A stretch of 64,000 nucleotides of DNA from Acidimicrobiia bacterium (lineage in GTDB: Bacteria; Actinomycetota; Acidimicrobiia; Spongiisociales; Spongiisociaceae). Shown here piece after piece: positions 2,950 through 59,600 of this stretch; positions within the stretch are counted from its first letter, which is position 1, and each line of letters opens with the position of its first letter. The notes beneath the pieces are model-generated. The model was given only the letters and a program-made list of their open reading frames with translations, was not told where the DNA came from and made no database searches. Made by a program: the position numbers and the translations under genes. The stretch covers positions 2,118,327-2,182,326 of the forward strand of contig OY760694.1 of assembly GCA_963663955.1 (NCBI GenBank), in the 5' to 3' direction.

Positions 2950-4722
2950 CTAGGAGCCTGCTGTTTATAGGGGTTGTGATGTTTGGACGGTTTGGGGTGG
3001 TGGGGTGCGTTTTTGGGGTTCGGGCGGGGTGCAGATGCGGGTTTTTGGGGTTCGGAGCGGGTTTTTGGGTGGTGGGTGGTGGATGAGTCTGGACTGTGCC
3101 GGGTTCGGGGTGGTTTATGCGGGGTTGAGGGTCCAGCGGGTGTTGGTGTGGGTGAGTCCGAGGTTGGTGAGGCGTTGTAGGTTGACGGCTGCTGCTTTGG
3201 TGGTGAGCCATTGTTTGTTGCGGGTTAGTCCTCGGTATGGGACGCGTCTGGCTTTGCCTCGGGTGAGCCAGGCGATGGTTCGTTCCACGAGCGGACGTCG
3301 GGTGCGGTAGGTGGTTTGGTTTCGGGGTTCAGCGAAGCGGGTTTTGTTGGTTTCACGCCGGTCGTGGTGTTCGTCGACTGTGACGGTGCGGCCTGCTTTG
3401 GCGGTGGTGCACCGGGCGCGTAGTGGGCAGCCGTTGCATCGTTTCGCGAAGCGGGCGGTTCCTCCGGGGCGTATACGAGCGGTGTGCCCGGCGGGGCATG
3501 TCACGGTTCGTGCCCCGGTGTCGATAGTGAAATCGTCGCGGTGGAACCCGTCGGGAATGCGGGGTTTGCGTACGATCGGTTTCACGATGGGGATATGATC
3601 TGCTTCTTCGAACGTTTTGAGCGCCGGACCGGACGCGTACGCGGAGTCGGCGAGTATCACGGTTTCGGGGAGTTCTTCGGCTATAAGATCGGCGATGCTG
3701 CCGGCGTCTGTGGTGTTAGCCGCGGTCAAAGCCGTAGCGGTGACCAACCCGGTTTCGGGTTCCACCGCGACATGTGCTTTGTAACCGTCCCGCTTCGCGG
3801 ACCGGGTTTTGTGACCGTGCCGCGCTTCGTGGTCCACCACAGATATGGTCCGGTCCTTCGCGACCCGGCGGGCTATCCGCCAACGACCAGGCCGGTCGGG
3901 GTCCGGTTCCACGTCCTGGCCTGTGACCACTCCCAACAAACCCAGGGCGTCGACCTGGTCCGAATCCAACTTCAAACCTTCTACAGCTTCGATAACCGCC
4001 AAGCCGTCTGTGACCAAACCGTCAATCAGTTCGGAACGAGACTCCGGATCGGACCAATCACAGGACGGTTTCGCTTTCGATTCATAATCATGCGCGGCCA
4101 ACACCACATCGGCCGCCTGCGGTATCAGACGGCGGCAACGCCTGATCTGGGATGAGATCATCGTTACCGTATCCTGAGTAGCCACCGCGTCATCCAAAAT
4201 CGTGGAATCCAGGGCCCGACGATCCTTACCCGCCAACACCCCGGACTCTGCAACCACTTCCCGCACCGCGTCGAAAATACGCTCAGGCCGCTTACTCGCC
4301 CGCAGCCTCGCCCGCCACCGGGTCAACACCGTCGGATGGAAACCCCGGTGCGTCAACGACAAACCCGCCGCGGCTTTCCAGGCGATGTCACGACGCAGCC
4401 GCTGCACCGCTTCCCGATCCGAAACAGCCTCCAAAGCCTGCAACACCAACACAGTCGCAATCACCGAACCAGGAACAGACGGGCGACCCCGCCCACTCCC
4501 GAACAAATCCGAAAACATCCCGTCGGGAAACAACCGGAGGCGATGCTCAGCCAGAAACCGGTACACCGAACCCTCCGGCACCAGATGCCACAAATCCGAC
4601 GTGTCCAGAAACTCACGATCAAAACGTTCAACACCCTGCATACCACCCATAATAACACCACCAAACACAAAACACGAGGACCCGCAGGCCCGACCAGGTG
4701 AATAAAACAGCAGTCTCCTAGG
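2950..4722 (-). mobile_element. IS element (~1.77 kb), IS1182/IS5-superfamily-like, with ~20-bp terminal inverted repeats
   Basis: Left end CTAGGAGCCTGCTGTTTATAG (2950-2970) is the inverted repeat of right end GAATAAAACAGCAGTCTCCTAGG (4700-4722). Encloses the 517-aa transposase ORF. G-rich tandem repeats lie inside the left end. Confidence 0.7.
3115..4668 (-). CDS. DDE transposase, IS1182/IS5 family-like (InsH-N / DUF772-like N-terminus)
   Basis: 517 aa; N-terminal segment …GRGRPSVPGSVIATVLVLQALEAVSDREAVQRLRRDIAWKAAAGL… resembles the transposase InsH N-terminal domain. D/E-rich C-terminal catalytic region. Flanked by the inverted repeats. Confidence 0.65.
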   Translation of the reverse strand: MFGGVIMGGMQGVERFDREFLDTSDLWHLVPEGSVYRFLAEHRLRLFPDGMFSDLFGSGRGRPSVPGSVIATVLVLQALEAVSDREAVQRLRRDIAWKAAAGLSLTHRGFHPTVLTRWRARLRASKRPERIFDAVREVVAESGVLAGKDRRALDSTILDDAVATQDTVTMISSQIRRCRRLIPQAADVVLAAHDYESKAKPSCDWSDPESRSELIDGLVTDGLAVIEAVEGLKLDSDQVDALGLLGVVTGQDVEPDPDRPGRWRIARRVAKDRTISVVDHEARHGHKTRSAKRDGYKAHVAVEPETGLVTATALTAANTTDAGSIADLIAEELPETVILADSAYASGPALKTFEEADHIPIVKPIVRKPRIPDGFHRDDFTIDTGARTVTCPAGHTARIRPGGTARFAKRCNGCPLRARCTTAKAGRTVTVDEHHDRRETNKTRFAEPRNQTTYRTRRPLVERTIAWLTRGKARRVPYRGLTRNKQWLTTKAAAVNLQRLTNLGLTHTNTRWTLNPA

Positions 4723-4773: not shown

Positions 4774-5892
4774 GTGTTTGAGCGTATCTACATTGAGAAC
4801 TACAAGTGCCTGGTCGACTTCGCCCTCCACCTAGACGACACCACGCTACTCCTCGGAGCTAACGGCACAGGCAAGACGGCCGTACTGGATGTGGTGTACG
4901 GCCTCCGCAAGCTGCTTACCGGCGAAGCCAAGGTCGCGGATCCCGTCGCTTTCCCCGCGTCTTCGCTCACTCGTTGGCAAACTCATAGGCACCAGCAGTT
5001 CAGGCTTCGGATTCGGGTGGTTGATGAGTCCTTTACCTACGCCCTCCGGGTGGAGCACGAAGAGGGCGGTTCGAAATCCCGTATAACTCGGGAGAGGCTG
5101 CTCGGGCAGGACAGAACGGTTCTGTTCGATTGTAAGATGGGGGAGGTTCAGCTCTACCGTGATGATGGCTCCACGGGTCCTGCTTTCTTGACGGACTGGC
5201 ATGAATCAGCCTTAGCACGGGTGGTGGAGCATCCCACTAACACGCGACTCACATCCTTTCTTAAAGCTATCCGAAGGACCGTGGTCTGCACTATCCGACC
5301 GGACAGGCTTCGCACCGAGTCGACCCGGGAGGACCCGATCCTGGATCGTGCTGCAACCAACTTTGTGGACTGGTACCGCCACGCCATCCAAGAGAACCCG
5401 AGACGGGCTCTCCCTCATGTAGACGCTCTCCGACCGGTGCTGGATGGTTTCAACGATCTCCAGGTGCGGCAGGCGGGACTAGACAGCAGGGCACTCATGC
5501 TCAGGTTCAGCGCCGACGACGAGAAAACCTACCGCCTTCGTTTCAGCGAGATCGCCGACGGACAGCGGGCACTGGTGGTGCTTTATGGACTAGTTCATCT
5601 GAGCCGCGGCGCCGGAGGCATCGTGTTATTCCTGGATGAACCCGACAACTACGTGGCACTTCCCGAGATCCAGCCATGGCTGCTGGAGTTGGTCGAGTTG
5701 TGTGAGGAAACCCCTTCTCAGGCGGTCATCTGCTCCCACCATCCGGAGTTGATCGACTACTTTGGAATAGCCCGCGGACGAGTACTGCGCCGCAACGCGT
5801 CCGGAGCGGTCACGCCGCACTCTCTTGACCCGCCGCCGGCTGGGAGCAGGCACAAGCTATCGGAATTAGTAGCTCGGGGCTGGGACAATTGA
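4774..5892 (+). CDS. ABC/SMC-type AAA family ATPase (AAA_21/AAA_15-like), copy 1 of a two-gene ATPase + Toprim-like module
   Basis: GTG start; Walker A GANGTGKT near the N-terminus, Walker B-like VLFLDEPDNYV near the C-terminus, SDGQRALV signature-like motif. Stop overlaps the start of the next gene (ATGA). Confidence 0.75.
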   Translation: MFERIYIENYKCLVDFALHLDDTTLLLGANGTGKTAVLDVVYGLRKLLTGEAKVADPVAFPASSLTRWQTHRHQQFRLRIRVVDESFTYALRVEHEEGGSKSRITRERLLGQDRTVLFDCKMGEVQLYRDDGSTGPAFLTDWHESALARVVEHPTNTRLTSFLKAIRRTVVCTIRPDRLRTESTREDPILDRAATNFVDWYRHAIQENPRRALPHVDALRPVLDGFNDLQVRQAGLDSRALMLRFSADDEKTYRLRFSEIADGQRALVVLYGLVHLSRGAGGIVLFLDEPDNYVALPEIQPWLLELVELCEETPSQAVICSHHPELIDYFGIARGRVLRRNASGAVTPHSLDPPPAGSRHKLSELVARGWDN

Positions 5893-6431
5893 GCAGGAAC
5901 GTCCGTATTGTCCTGCTCTGCGAGGATCAGCAGCACGAGGCCTTTGCCAGACGCTTCCTCAAAAGAGGCCCTTGGACCGTGCGAGATCTCAGAGTTGAGC
6001 GGGCACCGTCGGGGCGAGGATCAGCTGAGTACTTCGTACGCGACCGTTTCCCTGACGAACTCCAGTTGGTACGTTCCAAGAGGGGCGAGCAGGCCTACGT
6101 CATCGTAATGGTCGACGGCGACGCCGATGGCGTAGGCAAGCGCAAGGCCTCGCTTGGCACCGCCTGCGAGGAACGGGACGTGGCTCCACCAGGCAGCCGT
6201 GACCATGTGCTTATCTGCGTTCCCACATGGAACATCGAGACGTGGCTGGCATACCTCGGAGGCGAGGGGGTCGATGAAACCAACAAGGGGTATCCCCGAC
6301 TGTCTAGAGCACGGGACTGTGCTCCATTGGTAAACAAGTTGGTCAATATGTGCAACAAGGGAAGCCTGCGTGAGCCAACACCTGCATCGTTGGTGGAAAC
6401 CTGCGTCGACTATCAGCGCGTCTTTGACTAG
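5889..6431 (+). CDS. small Toprim-like protein (DUF4276-like), partner of the ATPase, copy 1
   Basis: 180 aa; N-terminal RIVLLCEDQQHEAF (conserved Glu) and VIVMVDGDADG (DxD), matching Toprim catalytic motifs. Translationally coupled to the upstream ATPase. Confidence 0.6.
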   Translation: MSRNVRIVLLCEDQQHEAFARRFLKRGPWTVRDLRVERAPSGRGSAEYFVRDRFPDELQLVRSKRGEQAYVIVMVDGDADGVGKRKASLGTACEERDVAPPGSRDHVLICVPTWNIETWLAYLGGEGVDETNKGYPRLSRARDCAPLVNKLVNMCNKGSLREPTPASLVETCVDYQRVFD

Positions 6432-6520: not shown

Positions 6521-6705
6521 TTAGCCTCGATTATTCATGGATGGGGGTTTGTAGGCTGAGTGGAGTAGACCATATTCGTGCCCTGACCAGGAAAGACAGC
6601 TATCGGCGTTTCCTATCCCGGAAGGGAACCACTGATGGCGACATTGCCTGTTCAGTGGTCTGATCCATTCATCGCCGAACTCCGATCTCATGAATCGGGG
6701 CTAGC
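6521..6705. repeat. degenerate/chimeric copy (a) of the ~210-bp MITE-like repeat family
   Basis: Starts TTAGCCTCGATTATTCATGG and matches the element in reverse orientation to ~6630, then diverges; ends with a TIR-like CATGAATCGGGGCTAGC. Confidence 0.55.
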
Positions 6706-6708
6706 GTC

Positions 6709-7854
6709 TTGTACATGGTCGGCGCATCCTTCACCCGAGTCCCGGATTATTCGGGAGGATCGCTGAGCAACCTCATGGCCGAGTTGGAGTTGCGCCTCAC
6801 CGGTGCCTGCCCCGGTATTCCCTTGCATTCGGCGCTAGCGGCGGAGATTCCGCCCGCGGCAACCTACTTGCTGGTCTTGATTGACGGCCTCGGCGCCCAC
6901 CAGCTGCACCATCCGGCGGCCGGACCGCTGGCCGACGCTCAGCGTGCAACCATCCACGCCCCGTTCCCGACGACCACCACCGTCAGCCTGGCTACGGTTG
7001 CTACCGCAGAGCCCCCCGGCGAGCACGGATGGGTCGGGCATTTTCTTCTGCCGGCGAATCACCCCAGACCGGTAAATACCCTCCGCTGGGTTGATTCAGC
7101 AGGCCACGCGGTCCACCCTGACGGGCGTGGACTGTTAATCGCCCCGAACCTGTGGGAGAGACTCCGCACATCCGGTATCGAGCCGATCACCGTGCAGCCG
7201 GCCGGTTTCGAGGGAAGCCCACTCACCCGGACGCTCTATAGAGGATGTCGATTCGAAGGAGCAGCGACAACCCGAGAATGGGCCCGTGCTTCCCTGGACT
7301 TGGCGCAGGAGCCGGGGCGGTTGATCTTCAGCTACTACCCGGCGGTCGATATCGCGGCCCACATGAAGGGCCTTAAGAGCCCCGCCTATCGGAACGCCCT
7401 GGCGGATGTAGCCAACGCGTGGGAGCGGATGGCGGCGGGGCTCCCCGGTAACGTCACCATGATCGGTACCGCCGACCACGGGGTAATCCCCGTCACCGCT
7501 AAAGGCAAACATCGCCTGGTGAGTAAACAGACCAGAGGTTTGGAACTGTTCGGGGATCCTCGCTCCCTATACGTGAATGGCCCGCAGGAACTCATCGAGG
7601 AGTTGGCCGCCCGGGTTCCCGCCGAACGGCTCACAAGGTCTGATCTCCGGACTCTATGGGGTTCCGGTTCGGCGGCGGATAACCCTGCTGCCGTCACCCC
7701 GTTCATCGAACCGGACGGCGCATTGCTCGCCCATCAGGGCCGGGTACTGCTGCCGGGCCACATGGACAAACGTTTGGTGGGTTACCACGGCGGGCTGGAT
7801 CCCAGAGAAATCGAGATCCCTCTGCTGGTCACATCACGAGCAGCGTCCGTATAG
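6709..7854 (+). CDS. alkaline phosphatase superfamily protein (type I phosphodiesterase / nucleotide pyrophosphatase-like)
   Basis: 381 aa; LVLIDGLG…TTTTVSLATVATAEPPGEHGWVG…GTADHG…YHGGLDPREIEIPLL motifs typical of AlkP-core metal/nucleophile sites. Confidence 0.65.
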   Translation: MYMVGASFTRVPDYSGGSLSNLMAELELRLTGACPGIPLHSALAAEIPPAATYLLVLIDGLGAHQLHHPAAGPLADAQRATIHAPFPTTTTVSLATVATAEPPGEHGWVGHFLLPANHPRPVNTLRWVDSAGHAVHPDGRGLLIAPNLWERLRTSGIEPITVQPAGFEGSPLTRTLYRGCRFEGAATTREWARASLDLAQEPGRLIFSYYPAVDIAAHMKGLKSPAYRNALADVANAWERMAAGLPGNVTMIGTADHGVIPVTAKGKHRLVSKQTRGLELFGDPRSLYVNGPQELIEELAARVPAERLTRSDLRTLWGSGSAADNPAAVTPFIEPDGALLAHQGRVLLPGHMDKRLVGYHGGLDPREIEIPLLVTSRAASV

Positions 7855-7856
7855 AG

Positions 7857-7951
7857 ATTCACCTGTCGGGTAAACGGTGGGTTTCTCCTGATACTCGGGT
7901 TGAACTGGCGTTACACGCCTCGGTGTGTGGGAAACCTGAATAATCAGGGCC
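7857..7951. repeat. half copy (b) of the MITE-like repeat (one TIR plus ~95 bp)
   Basis: …CTCGGGTTGAACTGGCGTTACACGCCTCGGTGTGTGGGAAACCTGAATAATCAGGGCC matches the reverse-orientation half of the full copies. Sits between convergent gene ends. Confidence 0.6.
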
Positions 7952-12842: not shown

Positions 12843-13913
12843 ATGCCAGCGGTGACGCCGGCAGTTAGCCTGTATGGCATTACCAAGCGGTTCGGGTCGG
12901 TAACCGCCGTGGACCAAATGGACCTCGAGATAGTCGACGGGGAGTTCTTCGCGTTGCTCGGTCCCTCCGGGTGCGGTAAGACCACCACTCTGCGCCTGAT
13001 TGCGGGCCTCGAATTCCCGACCGAGGGAAGTCTGCAGATCTTCGGCGACGAGGTGGGAACACTCCCGCCGAACAAGCGTCCGGTCAACACCGTATTCCAG
13101 AACTACGCATTGTTCCCGCACATGACTGTTGAGGAAAACGTCGGCTTCGGGCTCCGGATGCAGGGGGTCTCCAAGAATCGGATCAGCTCCCGGGTTAGTG
13201 ACGCCATCGGTCTGGTGCATCTGGATGGTCTGGAACACCGCCGGTCCCGCCAGCTATCCGGAGGGCAGCAGCAGCGGGTCGCCTTGGCCCGGGCACTTGT
13301 AAACAGCCCCAAGGTTCTGCTGCTCGACGAACCCCTCGGAGCGCTCGATCTCAAACTTCGCCAAGCCATGCAAACCGAACTGAAGGGCCTTCAGCGAGAG
13401 GTCGGGATCACCTTCGTCTTCGTGACTCACGACCAGGGCGAGGCATTGGCGATGAGCGACCGAATCGGCGTAATGGACGGGGGCCGCCTTCTTCAGGTGG
13501 GTACGCCTGAAGAGATCTACTCACAACCGTCCAACCGTTTCGTGGCGGACTTTATCGGCCAGACGAACCTGCTGGACGCGATGGTCATTGACCGCGAAAC
13601 GGTGACGCTGGCCAACGGAATCCGGATCCCGGCTGCGTCACAGGTTGCTCCCGGCGCCAGGGTCAACGTCAGCCTGAGACCGGAGCAGGCCATCTTGCAC
13701 CGGTTGGGTGGAGCGCCGCGGCGCCATACATCGGTGGACGGCCGGATCGAACAGATCACTTATCAAGGCAACGCTCTGGTTTACACGGTGGTGTTCGAAT
13801 GGATCAACCTGGATGTCCGCGTAGAGAACCGGCCGGGAGCGCAGCATGCGGGCGTGGGCGACGAAGTGACGGTGTCGTGGGAACCGACCGCCATGACGGT
13901 AGTTGAGGACTGA
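12843..13913 (+). CDS. potA: spermidine/putrescine ABC transporter ATP-binding protein
   Basis: Walker [10 protein letters not shown], signature [15 protein letters not shown], Walker [13 protein letters not shown]-terminal TOBE-like domain. GGAGG RBS upstream. Confidence 0.85.
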
Positions 13914-15884: not shown

Positions 15885-16994
15885 ATGCGGGTGATCAGTA
15901 GGAGAAAGTGGCTAGTCGCAGTCCTGAGCATGGCGCTGCTCACCGTCGCCTGTGCGGACGAGGGCGGTGAGGGACCATCGGCGGCCGACTGTGAAATAGG
16001 CCAGACCGACGGTGATTCTGAACATCTTCAACTGGGCCGAATACATCGATCCCGAATTGGTGGATGCGTTCGCGGCGGAGTTCGGAGTTGAAGTGACGAT
16101 CGACGCCTACGACTCCAACGAAGCAATGCAACCTATCATCTCTGCCGGGAACTCCGGCTACGACCTGATCGTACCGTCCGACTACATGGTGGCCATCCTT
16201 ATTGCCGGAGAGGACATCCAGCCTCTCGACAAGGACGCCATCCCGAACGCCGCCAACATCTCGCCGGACTTCGAAAACCTGATCTACGACCCGGATGGCG
16301 CCTACTCCATTCCCTACCAATGGGGAACCACCGGTATCGCGGTGGATACCGCGGTGGTGGGGACCGATTTTCCGAGGTCCTGGTCGATCATCTTCGATGC
16401 GGCCATCGCCGACGCCTACGCCGGTCGTATCTCGCTGCTGAACGACCCGCGGGAGACTCTGGGGGCGGCTCTCAAGTACCTCGGTTACTCGCTCAACACC
16501 ACCGATGAGGGAGAACTGGAAGAGGCTAAGGAACTGGTGGCCGAGGCCCGCGGGCGGGTGGCGGCGTTCGACACCGATCAGGCGGACGAGTTGCTCACCA
16601 CCGGAGAGACAGCGATAGCCCACGGTTACTCCGGCGACATGTTCACCCAGTTCCTGGAAACCGAGGATCCGTCTCGGTATGTCTATTTCGTTCCGGTGGA
16701 GGGTGGGACCCGTTGGATCGACAATATGGCGATCCCTCATGACGCCCCCAACCCGTGTTCCGCTCACGCCTTCATCAACTGGATCCTCGATGGGGAGAAC
16801 GGCGCGGCGCTCTCCAACTGGAACTACTACTCGACCCCCAACAGCGCAGCCTCGACGGGCTGGACGAGGATTTGCTGGACTTCGTCAACGACCCCGACGT
16901 GATTCCGGGCGGAGTGGAGTCATTGGAGTCGATCCAGGACACGGGTGATTTCGAGATCAGCTTCACCGACGCCTTCATCGAGGCGGTGGGATAG
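15885..16994 (+). pseudogene. potD: polyamine ABC substrate-binding lipoprotein (PotD-like) disrupted by two compensating frameshifts (+1 near ~16005-16015, -1 near ~16845)
   Basis: Frame 0 encodes the lipoprotein signal peptide (…LLTVACADEGG…) and stops at 16091. Frame +1 (16012-16902) encodes the mature domain (ILNIFNWAEYIDPE…). Frame 0 resumes at ~16845 with the PotD-like C-terminus (…LDGLDEDLLDFVNDPDVIPGG…DTGDFEISFTDAFIEAVG). Confidence 0.6.
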
Positions 16995-17190
16995 CCGTCG
17001 CTATCGCCTGACGGTACAGGAAACGACCCGAAACGGCTCGTCTGCCCTAGGGAACCACAACGTCCCCAGGGCAGACGAGCCATCGGAGTATGTGAGCTAC
17101 ATCCTGATTCACACGGCCCTACTATGCCGCCCAATTCAACGCCGTTTACTGACAAGCTCCTGATGGCCAATCACGATGTGCAGATGTACC

Positions 17191-18324
17191 ATGATTTTCG
17201 TGCTGGAACGTATCTATATCAAGAACTACAAGTGCCTAGCGGACTTCAACCTTCAACTGCAAGAGACCACACTTCTTCTTGGGGATAACGGTTCCGGAAA
17301 GACGGCCGTCCTCGATGTGGTTTATGGACTTCGCCAACTCTTGGCAGGAGAAGTCAAGATCACGGACCCTGTAGCGTTCCCTTCTTCCACGCTCACCCGC
17401 TGGCAAACCTGTCAAGAACAGCAGTTCGAACTCCAATTGAGGCTGGAGAGCGAGAGCTTTCTCTATAGGCTCCAAGTCGAACACGATCCCGGCATCGGTG
17501 CTTCCCGTATAACCCGTGAGAAGCTGGTCGGTGAAGACAAGACGGTGTTGTTCGATTGCAATATGGGAGAGGTACAGCTATATCGTGATGATGGTTCGGA
17601 GGGGCCAACCTATAGAACAGACTGGGGCGAGTCCGCCCTGGCACGTGTAGTTGAACAGCCGACCAACACGCGGCTCACCTCCTTCCTGAACGCTGTTCGC
17701 GGCGCAGTGGTCTGTACTGTCCGGCCGCATACCATCCGCTCGGTAGCAGCCCGAGGGGGCCATCGGCTCGGCCGTTACGCCGATAACTTTGTGGGTTGGT
17801 ACCGCAATGCCGTCCTTGATAGTCCAGGGTTGGCTCGATCTCATGAACAAGCCCTACAGGGTGTAATGGACGGTTTTGAAAGTCTTCGCCTTGAGCGGAT
17901 TGGCGTCGACACGCGGGAATTGAGGCTTCGCTTCTCTAGCGTAAACGGCGACCGCAGCGCCGGCAGGTACTGGCTCCGGCTTGATGAGATCTCCGATGGG
18001 CAGCGCGCACTGGTGGTTCTTTACGGATTGCTGCATCTGCACGGTGGGGATGGCGTATTGATGCTGTTGGATGAACCGGATAACTACGTGGCTCTTCCTG
18101 AAATCCAACCCTGGCTGATGGAATTGCTCGAGTTATGTGAGGAGACACCCTCGCAAGCCATTATATGTTCACACCATCCGGAGATAATCGACTTCCTCGG
18201 GCCGGATTATGGATTGATTCTACGCCGTAACGCCTCCGGTAACGCCACCGCGCGGCCGATCAGCCAACCAGCCTTGACGGGCTCCCTCAAGCTGTCCGAG
18301 TTGGCGGCGCGGGGAGACGCGTGA
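17191..18324 (+). CDS. ABC/SMC-type AAA family ATPase, copy 2 (paralog of 4774-5892, ~70% aa identity by eye)
   Basis: …FVLERIYIKNYKCLADF…LLLGDNGSGKTAVLDVVYGL…MLLDEPDNYVALPEIQPW… colinear with copy 1. Start taken at MIFVLERIY by homology; the track ORF begins at 17176. Confidence 0.75.
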   Translation: MIFVLERIYIKNYKCLADFNLQLQETTLLLGDNGSGKTAVLDVVYGLRQLLAGEVKITDPVAFPSSTLTRWQTCQEQQFELQLRLESESFLYRLQVEHDPGIGASRITREKLVGEDKTVLFDCNMGEVQLYRDDGSEGPTYRTDWGESALARVVEQPTNTRLTSFLNAVRGAVVCTVRPHTIRSVAARGGHRLGRYADNFVGWYRNAVLDSPGLARSHEQALQGVMDGFESLRLERIGVDTRELRLRFSSVNGDRSAGRYWLRLDEISDGQRALVVLYGLLHLHGGDGVLMLLDEPDNYVALPEIQPWLMELLELCEETPSQAIICSHHPEIIDFLGPDYGLILRRNASGNATARPISQPALTGSLKLSELAARGDA

Positions 18325-18893
18325 GCAGGAAAATCAGGGTGGTTCTACTCTGCGAAGACAAGCAACACCGTGCCTTCGTTACTCGTTTGATCCATCGGCT
18401 CGGCTGGAAGCCGCGTGATCTCCGAATCGAACAATCGCCCACTGGTCGAGGGTCGGCGGAGCATTACGTACGGAACCGGTTCCCTCGTGAGCTTCAGTGG
18501 CTACGCTCCAAAGGCGGCGAGCGGGTTTACCTGATAGTCATGGTCGATGGAGACGCGGCCGGCGTCTCCAAAAGAAAGGCCTCGCTCAGCGCCGCCTGCC
18601 ACCAACTAGGAGTACCACCACCTGGCGACGCCGACAACGTAGTCATTTGTGTACCGTCCTGGAACATCGAGACATGGCTGGCTTATCTCGAGGGTAAAAC
18701 GGTTGACGAAACCCATGCCCAATACCCCAAAATGGACAGACCCCGCAATTGCCAACCGATGGTCGACCAACTCGTTGAAATGTGCCGCGACCGAGCCCTT
18801 CGTAAGCCGGCCCCTGCATCTCTGGAAGAGGCTTGCACGAGCTACCGCCGCGTGTTCCCCAGCAGAGGTTCCGGATCTACCCACCTCGCCTGA
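18321..18893 (+). CDS. small Toprim-like protein (DUF4276-like), copy 2
   Basis: 190 aa; RVVLLCEDKQHRAF and LIVMVDGDAAG motifs as in copy 1. Start overlaps the ATPase stop (GTGA). Confidence 0.6.
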   Translation: MSRKIRVVLLCEDKQHRAFVTRLIHRLGWKPRDLRIEQSPTGRGSAEHYVRNRFPRELQWLRSKGGERVYLIVMVDGDAAGVSKRKASLSAACHQLGVPPPGDADNVVICVPSWNIETWLAYLEGKTVDETHAQYPKMDRPRNCQPMVDQLVEMCRDRALRKPAPASLEEACTSYRRVFPSRGSGSTHLA

Positions 18894-18958
18894 GAAAGGC
18901 ATCTCAGAACAAAACTGGTCATATGGCGCGTCCCGGAGACCCGCAGCAACCGACCACT

Positions 18959-19165
18959 AGCCCTGATTATTCAGGCTTCCCGCACACCGAGGCATGTAAC
19001 GCCAGTTCAACCCGAGTATTGGGAGAAACCCGCCGTTCACCCGGCAGGTGAATCTCTATACTGGATCGGAATGGGAAACGCCTATAGCTGTATTCCCTGG
19101 TCAGAGTACGAGTATGGTCTACTCCGCTCATCCTTCAAACCCCCGTCCATGAATAATCGGGGCTA
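18959..19165 (+). repeat. full copy (c) of the ~210-bp MITE-like repeat
   Basis: CTAGCCCTGATTATTCAGG…CCATGAATAATCGGGGCTAAC; the termini are inverted repeats of each other. Confidence 0.7.
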
Positions 19166-19211
19166 ACAGGTGTTCTTTGTAGCCTGATGACACACGCGCG
19201 GAGTGGATAGT

Positions 19212-28284: not shown

Positions 28285-28384
28285 TTGCCTCTTCCCGCTT
28301 CGACCACGTAATGACCACACTTCCGATGCCTGCCGACATATCTCGCCAAGTGAACCTTGTTCATCGGGTTCGACGAAGTTCCCT

Positions 28385-28593
28385 TAACCCTGATTATTCA
28401 GGTTTCCCACACACCGAGGCATGTAACGTCAGTTCCACCCGAGTTTGGGGGCTACCCACCGTTCACCCGACAGGTGAATATCTAGACCGGACCGGGATGG
28501 GAAATACCGATAGCTGTATTGCCTGGTCAGGGTGCGAATATAGCCTACTCCACTCATCCCCCAAACCTCCATCCATGAATAATCGGGGTTAAA
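28385..28593 (+). repeat. full copy (d) of the MITE-like repeat
   Basis: TTAACCCTGATTATTCAGG…CCATGAATAATCGGGGTTAA; perfect 19-bp terminal inverted repeat. Confidence 0.7.
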
Positions 28594-28605
28594 GGAGTCT
28601 GATTA

Positions 28606-31449: not shown

Positions 31450-31902
31450 ATGCACCTGGTTAGAACCCGACCCTTCCGACTCAATCATGATGTCGAGACG
31501 CTTCTCGAAGTGTTGCCGCTACCGGCGGCGCCCGGTTTCGGTGTCCGGGAGACTCGCCGGACCCGGCGGCCGTGGTCGCCGCGCGTCGACGTGATCGAGA
31601 CCGATGAGGCTCTTGTTACCCGGTATGAACTCGCCGGATTCCGGCTAGAGGACCTGGAGGTCACCCTCGACAACAACCTGCTAACGGTGAAGGGAACTCG
31701 TTCATCGGAGGCTCCGGAGGGAGCCGTTTATCGAGTCCGTGAACTCGCCGATGGCTCCTTCTCCCGCTCAATCCGGATCTCGGATGACTTCGATCCCGAC
31801 GGTGTGGTGGCCGAATTCTCAAATGGAATTCTCGAGGTTGTGGTTCCGAAGCGCCCACAGGTACAGACGAGAACCGTTCAGATCAGGACAGGAGGTAACT
31901 AG
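31450..31902 (+). CDS. Hsp20/alpha-crystallin family small heat-shock protein
   Basis: 150 aa; alpha-crystallin domain with …FSRSIRISDDFDPDGVVAEFSNGILEVVVPK… C-terminal consensus. Confidence 0.8.
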   Translation: MHLVRTRPFRLNHDVETLLEVLPLPAAPGFGVRETRRTRRPWSPRVDVIETDEALVTRYELAGFRLEDLEVTLDNNLLTVKGTRSSEAPEGAVYRVRELADGSFSRSIRISDDFDPDGVVAEFSNGILEVVVPKRPQVQTRTVQIRTGGN

Positions 31903-31953
31903 CCCTGATTATTCAGGTTTCCCACAGACCGACGCATGGAACGCCGGTTCAAC

Positions 31954-32920
31954 ATAAGAGCGTCCGCGGGTAGGGGTTAGTTGAGGTTCCAGCGGTCTCG
32001 CCATTTGATGAGTTTGATGGTGATGATGAGGGTGATGGCTAGGTTGAGTTGGGCGTGTCGGTGGTGGGTGTTTCGGTCGGTGTTGCGGCGGAGTTGCCCG
32101 TAGTTGGTGAGCCATGAGTTGGTTCGTTCGACGGTCCAGCGCATACCGAGGGGTGCGGGTGTTTTGGTGTTGCCGGTTTGGCCTCGTGGTTTTTTCTTGG
32201 CGCATATGACGTCGGTTATGCCGGCGGCGTCGCAGAGGGCGCGCACGGTTTTGCTGTCGTAGCCTCGGTCGAGGTGGAGGGTTTCTATGTCGGGGAGCAA
32301 TCCCCGCCGGTCGACAGCTTCGAGGGTGGGCTGGAATAGGATGCTGTCGTGGCGGTTGGCCCCGTTTGTGGCCCAACCGATCGGTATGCCGTTGCGGTCT
32401 ACGGCGAGGGACCATTTCCACCCGGATTTGGCCCGGTCGCAGGGGTTTTTCCCGGTTCCTTCCCCCCCGGAGGGCGCTTTGTGTTGGCTACCGTCGACCG
32501 AGACCTCGGATAGGTCCAACCCGATCACACGGTCGTAGGCGGCTACGGCTTCTGCTTCGAGGTTCTCGAAGACGCCTGCTTTCGTCCATTCATCGCGTCG
32601 GGCCCGCAGAGTCGTGTCCGACACCTCTTTGTTCAAGAGTTGTTCGGCTGTTTCCCACGAGCAGCCGGTCACTAACCGGATCAGTATCCCCTGGAAGCAG
32701 ACACGGTCGGGTTTGCGGGGATTGTGACAGCCCAGGGGATGGTTGTCCTCCCGGGCGGGCAACAGACCCTTTGTGGCTTTCCACACCGCGTTTGCTACTT
32801 CGGGGTCGAGTGCGCGCATAATGAACCTCCACCAGTTGGGGGATTTGTGTTGCACTCGGTATGAAACCCGAGACAACCCCTCAACTGGTGGATTTCCACC
32901 TACCCGCGGACGCTCTAAGT
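31954..32920 (-). mobile_element. IS5-family (IS427/IS1031-group-like) insertion sequence, ~0.96 kb, inserted into a MITE copy
   Basis: Terminal inverted repeats AGAGCGTCCGCGGGTAGG (31957-31974) and CCTACCCGCGGACGCTCT (32899-32916). Flanking TAAG on both sides is a possible target-site duplication. Confidence 0.7.
31977..32876 (-). CDS. IS5-family DDE transposase
   Basis: 299 aa; …FQGILIRLVTGCSWETAEQLL…RRDEWTKAGVFENL… typical IS427-like N-terminus, DDE region downstream. Confidence 0.7.
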   Translation of the reverse strand: MSRVSYRVQHKSPNWWRFIMRALDPEVANAVWKATKGLLPAREDNHPLGCHNPRKPDRVCFQGILIRLVTGCSWETAEQLLNKEVSDTTLRARRDEWTKAGVFENLEAEAVAAYDRVIGLDLSEVSVDGSQHKAPSGGEGTGKNPCDRAKSGWKWSLAVDRNGIPIGWATNGANRHDSILFQPTLEAVDRRGLLPDIETLHLDRGYDSKTVRALCDAAGITDVICAKKKPRGQTGNTKTPAPLGMRWTVERTNSWLTNYGQLRRNTDRNTHHRHAQLNLAITLIITIKLIKWRDRWNLN

Positions 32921-33332
32921 ATCAGGATAAATCCCGCCTTCACCCGCGGGTGACCCTCCAACACCGGCCCGGGATGGGAAACACCGATAGCTGTATTGCC
33001 TGGTCAGGGGTGTGATTACGGCGTAATCGGCTCATCTGTCAAACCCCCATCCATGAATAATCGGGGCTAACACTTTCCAGTACCAGCCGGACCGCTGTGG
33101 ATGGCACAGCCCACCCCTCCTCTCCTCCATCCACAGTCCGGCCTCCCGTTCCGGCGCACCCTCCCGGCGCCGGAACGGGAACTCCCTTTTCGTTGTGTTC
33201 AATCCTGAATGTGTTCGGGAATCCCGTGAAAAACGCATAACGAGGCCACCTTGCACGGTGAACGGCGCAGGGCCTTATTCCGGTAGTCGGTGAAACCCTA
33301 CGCTTTTCTTGATGGCTGGGACCACGCCCTAC

Positions 33333-54322: not shown

Positions 54323-54497
54323 CAGGTTATTTCGTCTCCATACGTTTCGGCTCGGTCCCCCACCCCTGACCGTGGCGACACCCTGCTGGACGCCGACAGA
54401 CCGGAGGCGGGCCTGGATTCGAGTTTAGTGGATACCATTGAAACACAAAGGCGGGCGCTCGCTAAACCAAGATGGAGGTCGCAGCGAGTAGATTCCC

Positions 54498-54712
54498 GCT
54501 AGCCCTGATTATTCAGGTTTCCCACACACCGAGGCATGATACGCCAGTTCAACCCGAGTATTTGGGAGGAAGCCCACTGTTCACCCGGCAGGTGAATCTC
54601 TACCCCCGACCGGGGACGGGGAACGCCGAAGGCTGTATTGCCTGGCCAGGGCGCGAATATGGTTCTATTCCACTCATCCTCCAAACCCCCGTCCATGAAT
54701 AATCGGGGCTAA
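54498..54712 (+). repeat. full copy (f) of the MITE-like repeat
   Basis: GCTAGCCCTGATTATTCAGG…CCATGAATAATCGGGGCTAATC. Confidence 0.7.
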
Positions 54713-54883
54713 TCGGGTGACTATCCGGTTCAGATCGGGTCAGGTTCACCGCCGGGGGGAATGGAGGGCGCCGACTATCGTCAGCGCGTGGAGCGGCCTG
54801 ATGAGCTTCGGTGTGTGGGGAACGGGAAGAATCGGGGCTAGTCTACCCTTTGCAAGCAGTAAGCAACCCGGGGAGAATCGGTT

Positions 54884-59388: not shown

Positions 59389-59600
59389 ATAACCCCGATT
59401 ATTCATGGATGAGGGTTTGGGGGATGAGTGGAGTAGACCATATTCGCGCCCTGACCAGGCAATACGGCTATCGGCGTTTCCCGTCCCGGTCCAGTGTGGA
59501 AATTCACCTGTGGGGTGAACAATAGGTTTCTCCCAATACTCGGCTTGAACTGGCGATACATGCTTCGGTGGGTGGGAAACCTGAATAATCAGGGTTAAGG
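59389..59600 (-). repeat. full copy (g) of the MITE-like repeat, reverse orientation
   Basis: AACCCCGATTATTCATGG…CCTGAATAATCAGGGTTAAGG. Confidence 0.7.

Follow-up and report, generated by a model that had tools for sequence, protein, structure and literature searches.

A two-gene ABC ATPase and mini-Toprim module in two diverged copies in an Acidimicrobiia genome: a candidate split OLD-like system

What is the function of a gene pair that a single genome carries twice, in two clearly different versions, and that joins an ABC (ATP-binding cassette) ATPase to a small protein with Toprim-like motifs? This question is raised by a stretch of 64,000 nucleotides (hereafter termed the window) from an Acidimicrobiia bacterium (assembly GCA_963663955.1, contig OY760694.1, positions 2,118,327 to 2,182,326), in which copy 1 of the pair is located at positions 4774-6431 and copy 2 at positions 17176-18893. 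We consider the pair best explained as a split OLD-like module, in which the ATPase would act as the sensor and the small Toprim protein as the nuclease effector, probably directed against mobile elements, and we assign this reading a probability of roughly 0.6.

Two coupled gene pairs and their lineages

The initial annotation had described two loci in which an ATPase gene runs into a small gene via an overlapping stop and start codon. Open reading frames (ORFs) with this architecture were found in both copies, comprising the following genes:

4774-5892, plus strand: copy 1 ABC (SMC/Rad50-type) ATPase, 372 amino acids (aa), GTG start
5889-6431, plus strand: copy 1 small Toprim-like protein, 180 aa, TTG start
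17176-18324, plus strand: copy 2 ABC ATPase, 382 aa as the longest ORF
18321-18893, plus strand: copy 2 small Toprim-like protein, 190 aa, GTG start

The stop of the ATPase gene and the start of the small gene share four nucleotides, TTGA in copy 1 and GTGA in copy 2, as seen in the junctions GACAATTGAGCAGG and GACGCGTGAGCAGG, respectively. For the ATPase of copy 2 two alternative starts have to be considered. On a Logan contig of identical sequence, the gene was independently called from the ATG at position 17191, which yields a protein of 377 aa, and an alignment of both copies places the GTG at position 17200 opposite the start of copy 1. The true start is thus probably 17191 or 17200 rather than 17176.

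The ATPase of copy 1 contains the Walker A motif GANGTGKT, the signature-like sequence ADGQR, the Walker B motif VLFLDEPD and the H-loop CSHHPE, and the corresponding sequences in copy 2 are GDNGSGKT, SDGQR, LMLLDEPD and CSHHPE. The motifs quoted in the initial annotation were all present in the translations of both copies, with LDEPDNYV in the ATPases as well as LLCEDxQH and VMVDGDA in the small proteins. Likewise, the small proteins of both copies comprise the putative catalytic residues E12/D13, D76xD78 and E117. An Rfam search of the window revealed no RNA. At 56-60%, the modules are only slightly lower in GC content than their flanks (58-65%), a difference that is not decisive for a transfer.

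Relatives of the module were collected by a species-level scan covering one genome per species (185,579 species), which yielded 161 candidate stretches encoding a relative, the best 80 of which were kept. An ATPase homologue is located directly upstream of the small gene and on the same strand in 80/80 loci, and this recurrence confirms that the pairing of the two genes is real and not due to chance. The overlap of four nucleotides, with the sequence NTGA, is kept in 62 of the 77 scorable loci. Moreover, the two genes are inherited together, as pairwise identities of the ATPases and of the small proteins correlate with r = 0.80. Clustering of the ORFs that flank the 80 loci did not reveal a third conserved gene, the next commonest family being present in eight loci. 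The ratio of nonsynonymous to synonymous substitution rates (dN/dS) amounts to 0.11-0.22 for both genes, between the window copies as well as in comparison with their nearest relatives, showing that both genes are under purifying selection. Apparent frameshifts were observed in five of the 80 loci (L017, L054, L032, L047 and L072).

The hosts include many Acidimicrobiia, together with Planctomycetota, Acidobacteriota, Spirochaetia, Alpha- and Gammaproteobacteria, Binatia, Myxococcota, Gemmatimonadota and others. Relatives from different host groups are ~50% identical, and this degree of identity across phyla indicates horizontal spread. Three metagenome-assembled genomes (MAGs), APA_bin_98, APA_bin_7 and Poriferisodalis aea9684f, contribute two loci each to the 80. 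Some names of carrier genomes (Candidatus Poriferisodalis and the labels APA_bin, IRC3_bin and RHO3_bin) presumably point to sponge hosts; many other carriers are MAGs with isolate names in the style of universally unique identifiers (UUIDs). The patchy distribution and the variable neighbourhoods support the notion that the pair is accessory cargo, as had been proposed from the window.

The two copies are less similar than the ~70% identity first estimated, since their ATPases share 63% and their small proteins 61% identity; at the DNA level the identity is ~65%, and within the ORFs only. The nearest relative of copy 1 is locus L017 (82.5%) and that of copy 2 is locus L007 (73.6%), as compared to the 63% between the two. 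Because each copy is closer to a copy from another genome than to its counterpart in the window, the results support the assignment of the two copies to separate lineages of one family, which leaves old paralogues or separate acquisitions, the two origins already named in the initial annotation. A recent tandem duplication was rejected, as the DNA similarity ends at the ends of the ORFs, the synonymous divergence (dS) between the copies is saturated (2.1-2.8), and a closer relative exists elsewhere for each copy. Within the ATPase, residues 181-260 diverge most between the copies (~40% identity), as do residues 341-360, compared with 75-90% identity in the catalytic core. The two copies probably respond to different triggers.

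A third lineage is represented by an orphan ATPase, P0141, encoded at positions 8001-9134 of L087 (sister genome ERZ25069711) and sharing 60% identity with copy 1 and 57% with copy 2. It is carried by a sister genome of ~97% identity at a different locus, where it is followed by a gap of 330 nucleotides to the next gene and by no small partner, and where it adjoins corrinoid methyltransferase genes, two copies of a miniature inverted-repeat transposable element (MITE) and an insertion sequence (IS).

Fold and family of the two proteins

Both ATPases passed the Pfam gathering cutoffs for AAA_21 (44.7 bits for copy 1 and 55.5 bits for copy 2, the latter with E 1.2e-14; cutoff 27) and for AAA_15 (41 and 46.9 bits; cutoff 32.1), in line with the ABC/SMC-type ATPase proposed initially. 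The top match in PADLOC was HEC-01A (E 4e-20 for copy 1 and 1.5e-19 for copy 2, ~90% coverage), followed by PDC-M25A, mad3 (copy 2, E 3.5e-19) and AriA, and the top sequence relative in the PDB was the N-terminus of Ts OLD (E 1.1e-9). [quoted passage not shown] With Walker A, signature, Walker B and H-loop present, the ATPase is a head of the SMC/Rad50 type, nearer to Rad50, SMC and PtuA than to the nucleotide-binding domains of transporters.

The small protein is less readily assigned by curated models. Neither window protein matched a Pfam family at E <= 1, except for DUF3226 with E 0.12 in copy 2, and NCBIfam and PHROGs yielded no match for either. In PADLOC, the matches to HEC-01B were weak (E 0.003 for copy 1 and 0.04 for copy 2), as was the match of copy 2 to mad4 (E 0.031). 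We therefore extended the model scans to 126 diverse representatives of the small-protein family, which also served to determine its conservation. One HEC-01B model was matched by 45 of these (best E 2.9e-8), DUF3226 by 18 (best E 1.8e-6), DUF4276 by 14 (best E 6.8e-6), mad4 by 14, and RloB and OLD-like_TOPRIM by one each. DUF4435 was matched neither by the window proteins nor by any of the 126 family members, and a search of PDB sequences with the family profile yielded chance-level matches alone (E > 1).

The residues E12 and D76 are invariant (126/126), and D13 and D78 are each kept in 123, E117 in 119, W119 in 125 and E130 in 124 of the representatives. The AF2 model of the small protein (pLDDT 88) is built from a four-stranded beta-alpha repeat and ends in two C-terminal helices, and in this model E12 follows strand 1 (residues 7-11), D76xD78 follows strand 3 (residues 70-74) and E117 follows strand 4. 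The Toprim signature has been described as a three-layer alpha/beta fold in which a conserved Glu follows strand 1 and a DxD motif follows strand 3 (PMC12065111), and the placement of the Glu and DxD residues in the model agrees with this description. Judged by motifs and model, the assignment of the small proteins to the Toprim type, as putative nucleases, is well supported. The initial annotation had suggested a Toprim protein resembling DUF4276. The Toprim part has indirect support, from the matches of family members and from the model, and the link to DUF4276, although it gave a good lead, has to be reduced: since neither window protein matches this family and just 14 of the 126 members do, the sequence comparison indicates remote relatedness rather than formal Pfam membership.

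The family itself is large. A full scan with a hidden Markov model (HMM) yielded 1,661 small-protein clusters at 50% identity with E <= 0.001, 1,274 of them with E <= 1e-10; nearly all of the 150 matches listed are ~180 aa in length, none exceeds 271 aa, and no fusion of ATPase and Toprim protein was found among the top 150 representatives. A word-indexed search returned 388 matches to the small protein, with no Pfam domain among the 120 matches listed.

Five cysteines of the small protein are conserved among the 126 representatives, and their codons in copy 1 are located as follows:

5919-5921: C11, present in 114
6165-6167: C93, present in 82
6318-6320: C144, present in 103
6351-6353: C155, present in 109
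6402-6404: C172, present in 115

C11 adjoins the catalytic Glu, and three of the conserved cysteines are located in the C-terminal helices. Together they may constitute a metal-binding or redox-active site. The cysteines are the sole feature for which no counterpart could be identified.

Comparison with known systems and competing explanations

Toprim enzymes of this class cut DNA (OLD, GajA) or tRNA (AriB). By analogy to PARIS (AriA/AriB), OLD and Gabija, we infer how complex formation, nuclease activity, substrate, trigger and defence role of the pair may be connected. Each locus would constitute a self-contained two-gene operon, in which the small gene is translationally coupled to the ATPase gene. 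A dimer of the ATPase would bind the small protein, a putative metal-dependent nuclease of 180-190 aa with a Toprim fold, and keep it in check. The variable inserts of the ATPase would sense the trigger, either a protein of foreign origin or abnormally structured nucleic acid, whereupon the binding or hydrolysis of ATP would free or activate the nuclease. The activated nuclease would then cut DNA or RNA and thereby stop a phage or other mobile element, or the infected cell. In PARIS, AriA holds AriB, and the trigger releases the nuclease (PMC11464382). Pairs that join an ABC ATPase to a Toprim protein and are counted as defence systems comprise OLD, Gabija, PARIS, AbiL and MADS3-4 (PMC11464382).

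In its working principle the module is, by analogy, a split OLD-like system with HEC-01 and MADS3-4 as the closest known counterparts. HEC-01 (Hma-embedded candidate 01), a candidate system in PADLOC, likewise consists of an ABC ATPase of ~370-400 aa followed by a Toprim-like protein of ~200 aa (10.1101/2024.01.29.577857). The window ATPases match HEC-01A nearly end to end, whereas the matches of the small proteins to HEC-01B are weak, suggesting that the window pairs belong to a divergent clade, which models of this kind would probably miss. Moreover, HEC-01 is defined as being embedded in Hma systems, whereas the window pairs stand alone near nuo, pot and queG.

MADS3-MADS4 likewise combine an AAA_15/21 ABC ATPase with a Toprim partner of the DUF4276 type (PMC11464382, PMC12065111). 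However, the window ATPases reach 47.6 and 41 bits with the NCBIfam model MAD3, far below its cutoff of 420 and thus outside MADS. In addition, neither a methyltransferase nor another mad gene is located beside either copy among the annotated ORFs of the window, nor do such genes recur in the 80 loci. The MADS system needs six of its eight genes for defence (mad2-4 and mad6-8), mad3 and mad4 being among those required (10.1101/2023.03.30.534895).

The initial annotation had compared the pair to a split version of OLD/Gabija and PARIS. This comparison holds for the design of ATPase and Toprim partner and not for formal membership in either group. PARIS likewise distributes ABC ATPase and Toprim effector over adjacent genes and provides the mechanistic template. 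However, AriB is a 35-kDa protein with DUF4435, a domain for which the window family yielded no match, and AriA (53-55 kDa) builds a hexamer via coiled-coil inserts, whereas the model of the window ATPase is compact and lacks a long helical insert. OLD and GajA contain the same two catalytic modules, as also reflected by the PDB match to Ts OLD, but fuse them in one chain, whereas the pair is encoded by separate ORFs in 80/80 loci. Gabija also needs the UvrD-type helicase GajB, whereas no helicase is conserved beside the pair, a Helicase_C gene being present once (locus L090). Finally, DUF4276 and DUF3226 have the small size and the acidic motif pattern in common with the window small proteins, but neither window protein reaches the gathering threshold of DUF4276, the match to DUF3226 is confined to the marginal one of copy 2, and the family keeps C11, C144, C155 and C172.

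Several points weigh against a role in defence. We infer the defence function of the ATPase/mini-Toprim family by analogy only. The nearest candidate, HEC-01, protected against no phage tried in Escherichia coli (10.1101/2024.01.29.577857), and Mad3 and Mad4 act inside the eight-gene MADS and not alone (10.1101/2023.03.30.534895). The small proteins of the window reach no curated threshold, with no match in Pfam and HEC-01B at best at E 0.003. Most of the neighbourhoods examined comprise housekeeping genes rather than defence islands. Furthermore, no relatives were found in IMG/VR, the plasmids of PLSDB or the phages of INPHARED, although many defence systems ride on such elements.

Could the pair instead be a toxin-antitoxin (TA) or addiction module, in which the ATPase restrains a Toprim toxin and which persists since its loss is harmful, and not because it protects from phages? 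The coupled two-gene cassette, its patchy spread across phyla and the lack of a fixed neighbourhood would suit this explanation, which we nevertheless regard as rather unlikely. The Pfam text for AAA_21 reads 'putative AbiEii toxin, Type IV TA system', and the TA genes HipA, PIN and HicA are found among some neighbours. Loss of the methylase of MADS is lethal unless mad2 or mad3 is deleted too (10.1101/2023.03.30.534895), which indicates that such ATPases can drive self-toxicity. In contrast, the frameshifts apparent in five loci show that the cassette can decay without killing its host, and its absence from PLSDB is at odds with the abundance of addiction modules on plasmids. The survival of the orphan ATPase without a small gene in the sister genome points in the same direction. 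However, this pattern of loss is expected if the danger lies in the nuclease, and therefore it does not separate addiction from defence.

RecR has a Toprim domain and acts with RecF. This precedent for an ATPase with a Toprim partner, along with the chromosomal location of most loci among housekeeping genes, would be compatible with an accessory function in repair or maintenance that acts on the cell's own DNA, as in RecF-RecR or Rad50-Mre11. We consider such a function unlikely. The window ATPase scores 30.3 bits with the RecF model TIGR00611, compared with a cutoff of 172, and the module is present in ~0.1% of species, sometimes in two copies. The ~50% identity across phyla and the closer relationship of each window copy to a foreign one fit horizontal transfer rather than a core function in repair, and the nuo/pot synteny is kept among near-identical genomes alone.

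That the ATPase is an ordinary transporter ATPase or ABC-F factor beside an unrelated small ORF is effectively excluded: apart from the position of copy 2 behind the potABCD operon, it could be based on weak matches to Pfam ABC_tran (E 1e-5 to 1e-7) and to NCBIfam EttA and ABC-F, but these as well as the NCBIfam transporter models remain far under their curated cutoffs (EttA, for instance, with 25 bits versus 599), a permease is paired with the gene in 0/80 loci, all of which have the small Toprim-like gene, and the pot operon has an ATPase of its own, potA (12843-13913).

Among the observations that would speak against its proposal, the initial annotation had named an identity of the ATPases as transporter or RecF-like housekeeping genes with a conserved chromosomal synteny. 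Such an identity is countered by the scores below cutoff, and the synteny was seen among very close relatives (96-100% identity) alone. Taken together, we favour the split OLD-like module over these explanations.

Genomic surroundings and significance of the module

Copy 1 is located between nuoA and a phosphodiesterase-family gene (6709-7854), and copy 2 just after the potABCD operon; queG is also among the window flanks. The arrangement around copy 1 is the same in two sister genomes, whose flanking DNA is 99.8-100% and ~97% identical to the window, and the synteny with nuo and pot is restricted to genomes 96-100% identical to the window and was seen at no other locus. The window comprises the following mobile elements:

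2955-4717, minus strand: IS1182-type insertion sequence, 1,763 bp, ends set by aligning L001 and L088, two sister genomes
3115-4668: IS1182-type transposase, 517 aa, with Pfam DUF772, DDE_Tnp_1 and DDE_Tnp_1_6
18954-19168, plus strand: MITE-like repeat of ~215 nucleotides with terminal inverted repeats CCCYGATTATTCA, 61 nucleotides downstream of the copy 2 small gene
6521-6620: half copy of the MITE, 90 nucleotides downstream of the copy 1 small gene
28381-28594, 54496-54714, 59390-59597 (inverted): other MITE copies
31898-31953 + 32918-33072; 6521-6620 + 7849-7950: split MITE copies

The IS1182-type element upstream of copy 1 and the MITE beside copy 2 were thus found as initially annotated, although the weight given to these neighbours had been overstated. 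The IS is inserted 52 nucleotides upstream of the start of the copy 1 ATPase, with the target-site duplication CTAGG at positions 2950-2954 and 4718-4722. Because it is missing from this site in both L001 and L088, the insertion is recent. It may alter the expression of the copy 1 ATPase, but IS and MITE are context only and not part of the module. Copies of the element that are 87-95% identical are present elsewhere in related genomes (L001 15866-17632 and L087 613-2163), and its left end (~3001-3600) is extremely skewed in base composition, by +0.40 (GC skew) and -0.48 (AT skew).

The MITE copies are 81-92% identical to one another. Both modules are followed by MITE sequence 61-90 nucleotides downstream, in opposite orientations, and the sister genome L088 lacks the half at 6521-6620. 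The halves at 6521-6620 and 7849-7950 correspond to positions 118-217 and 11-112 of the repeat and are therefore contiguous parts of it, yet they flank the whole phosphodiesterase-family gene. A second copy is split by an IS5-type element at positions 31954-32917, which encodes a transposase of 299 aa (DDE_Tnp_1/DUF4096) on the minus strand. The idea that this 299-aa ORF and the phosphodiesterase gene represent one cargo family borne by the MITE was rejected, as the two are unrelated and the former is the IS5-type transposase.

The frameshifted potD upstream of copy 2 was likewise recovered. The potD-like gene (15885-16902) is split into an ORF with a lipoprotein signal peptide (15885-16091) and a body ORF in a different frame (16012-16902), with the frameshift located near 16005-16015. 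A Logan assembly made independently from run ERR3887494 has the identical sequence. The split gene represents either a genuine pseudogene or a mistake common to both assemblies.

The neighbourhoods of relatives in other genomes are as follows:

L085: island beside smpB with integrase, IS fragments, HipA, PIN and AbiEii-like genes
L084, L086, L089, L091: metabolic or envelope genes
L090: Helicase_C gene upstream of the pair

In contrast to the island of L085, other pairs are solitary insertions between metabolic genes. On the Acidimicrobiia contig L090 (4510-7543), the reading frame of the 454-aa Helicase_C protein extends four nucleotides into the ATPase gene; just upstream, an AAA_14/DUF4143 ATPase is encoded. 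This locus may represent a three-gene Gabija-like variant, which we observed as a single occurrence.

The combination of an ABC ATPase with a Toprim protein, as in OLD, Gabija, PARIS, AbiL, MADS3-4 and HEC-01, is a design that recurs in bacterial immunity. The architecture itself is known from the literature, and the pairs described here belong to a large and strongly conserved clade of ABC ATPase and mini-Toprim pairs that is without annotation. Tentatively, and as a possibility we would rather doubt than assert, the clade might constitute a stand-alone defence family that is missed by Pfam and PADLOC, has a cysteine-based metal or redox site by the catalytic Glu, is kept as several diverged paralogues per genome, with ATPase inserts specific for different triggers, and appears especially frequent in Acidimicrobiia and other MAGs with names that point to sponge hosts. 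If true, this would be a named addition to the ABC ATPase/Toprim immune class, distinct in regulation and in substrate. If the pairs are inactive against phages like HEC-01, the question becomes what purpose such widespread cassettes serve. The compact proteins (372 and 180 aa in copy 1), for which high-confidence models are available, suit biochemical work, and the two diverged paralogues that this genome carries could serve to map the regions of the ATPase that set specificity. Given that the family is large, that current models do not see it and that nature provides a pair of paralogues, the module is a reasonable experimental target.

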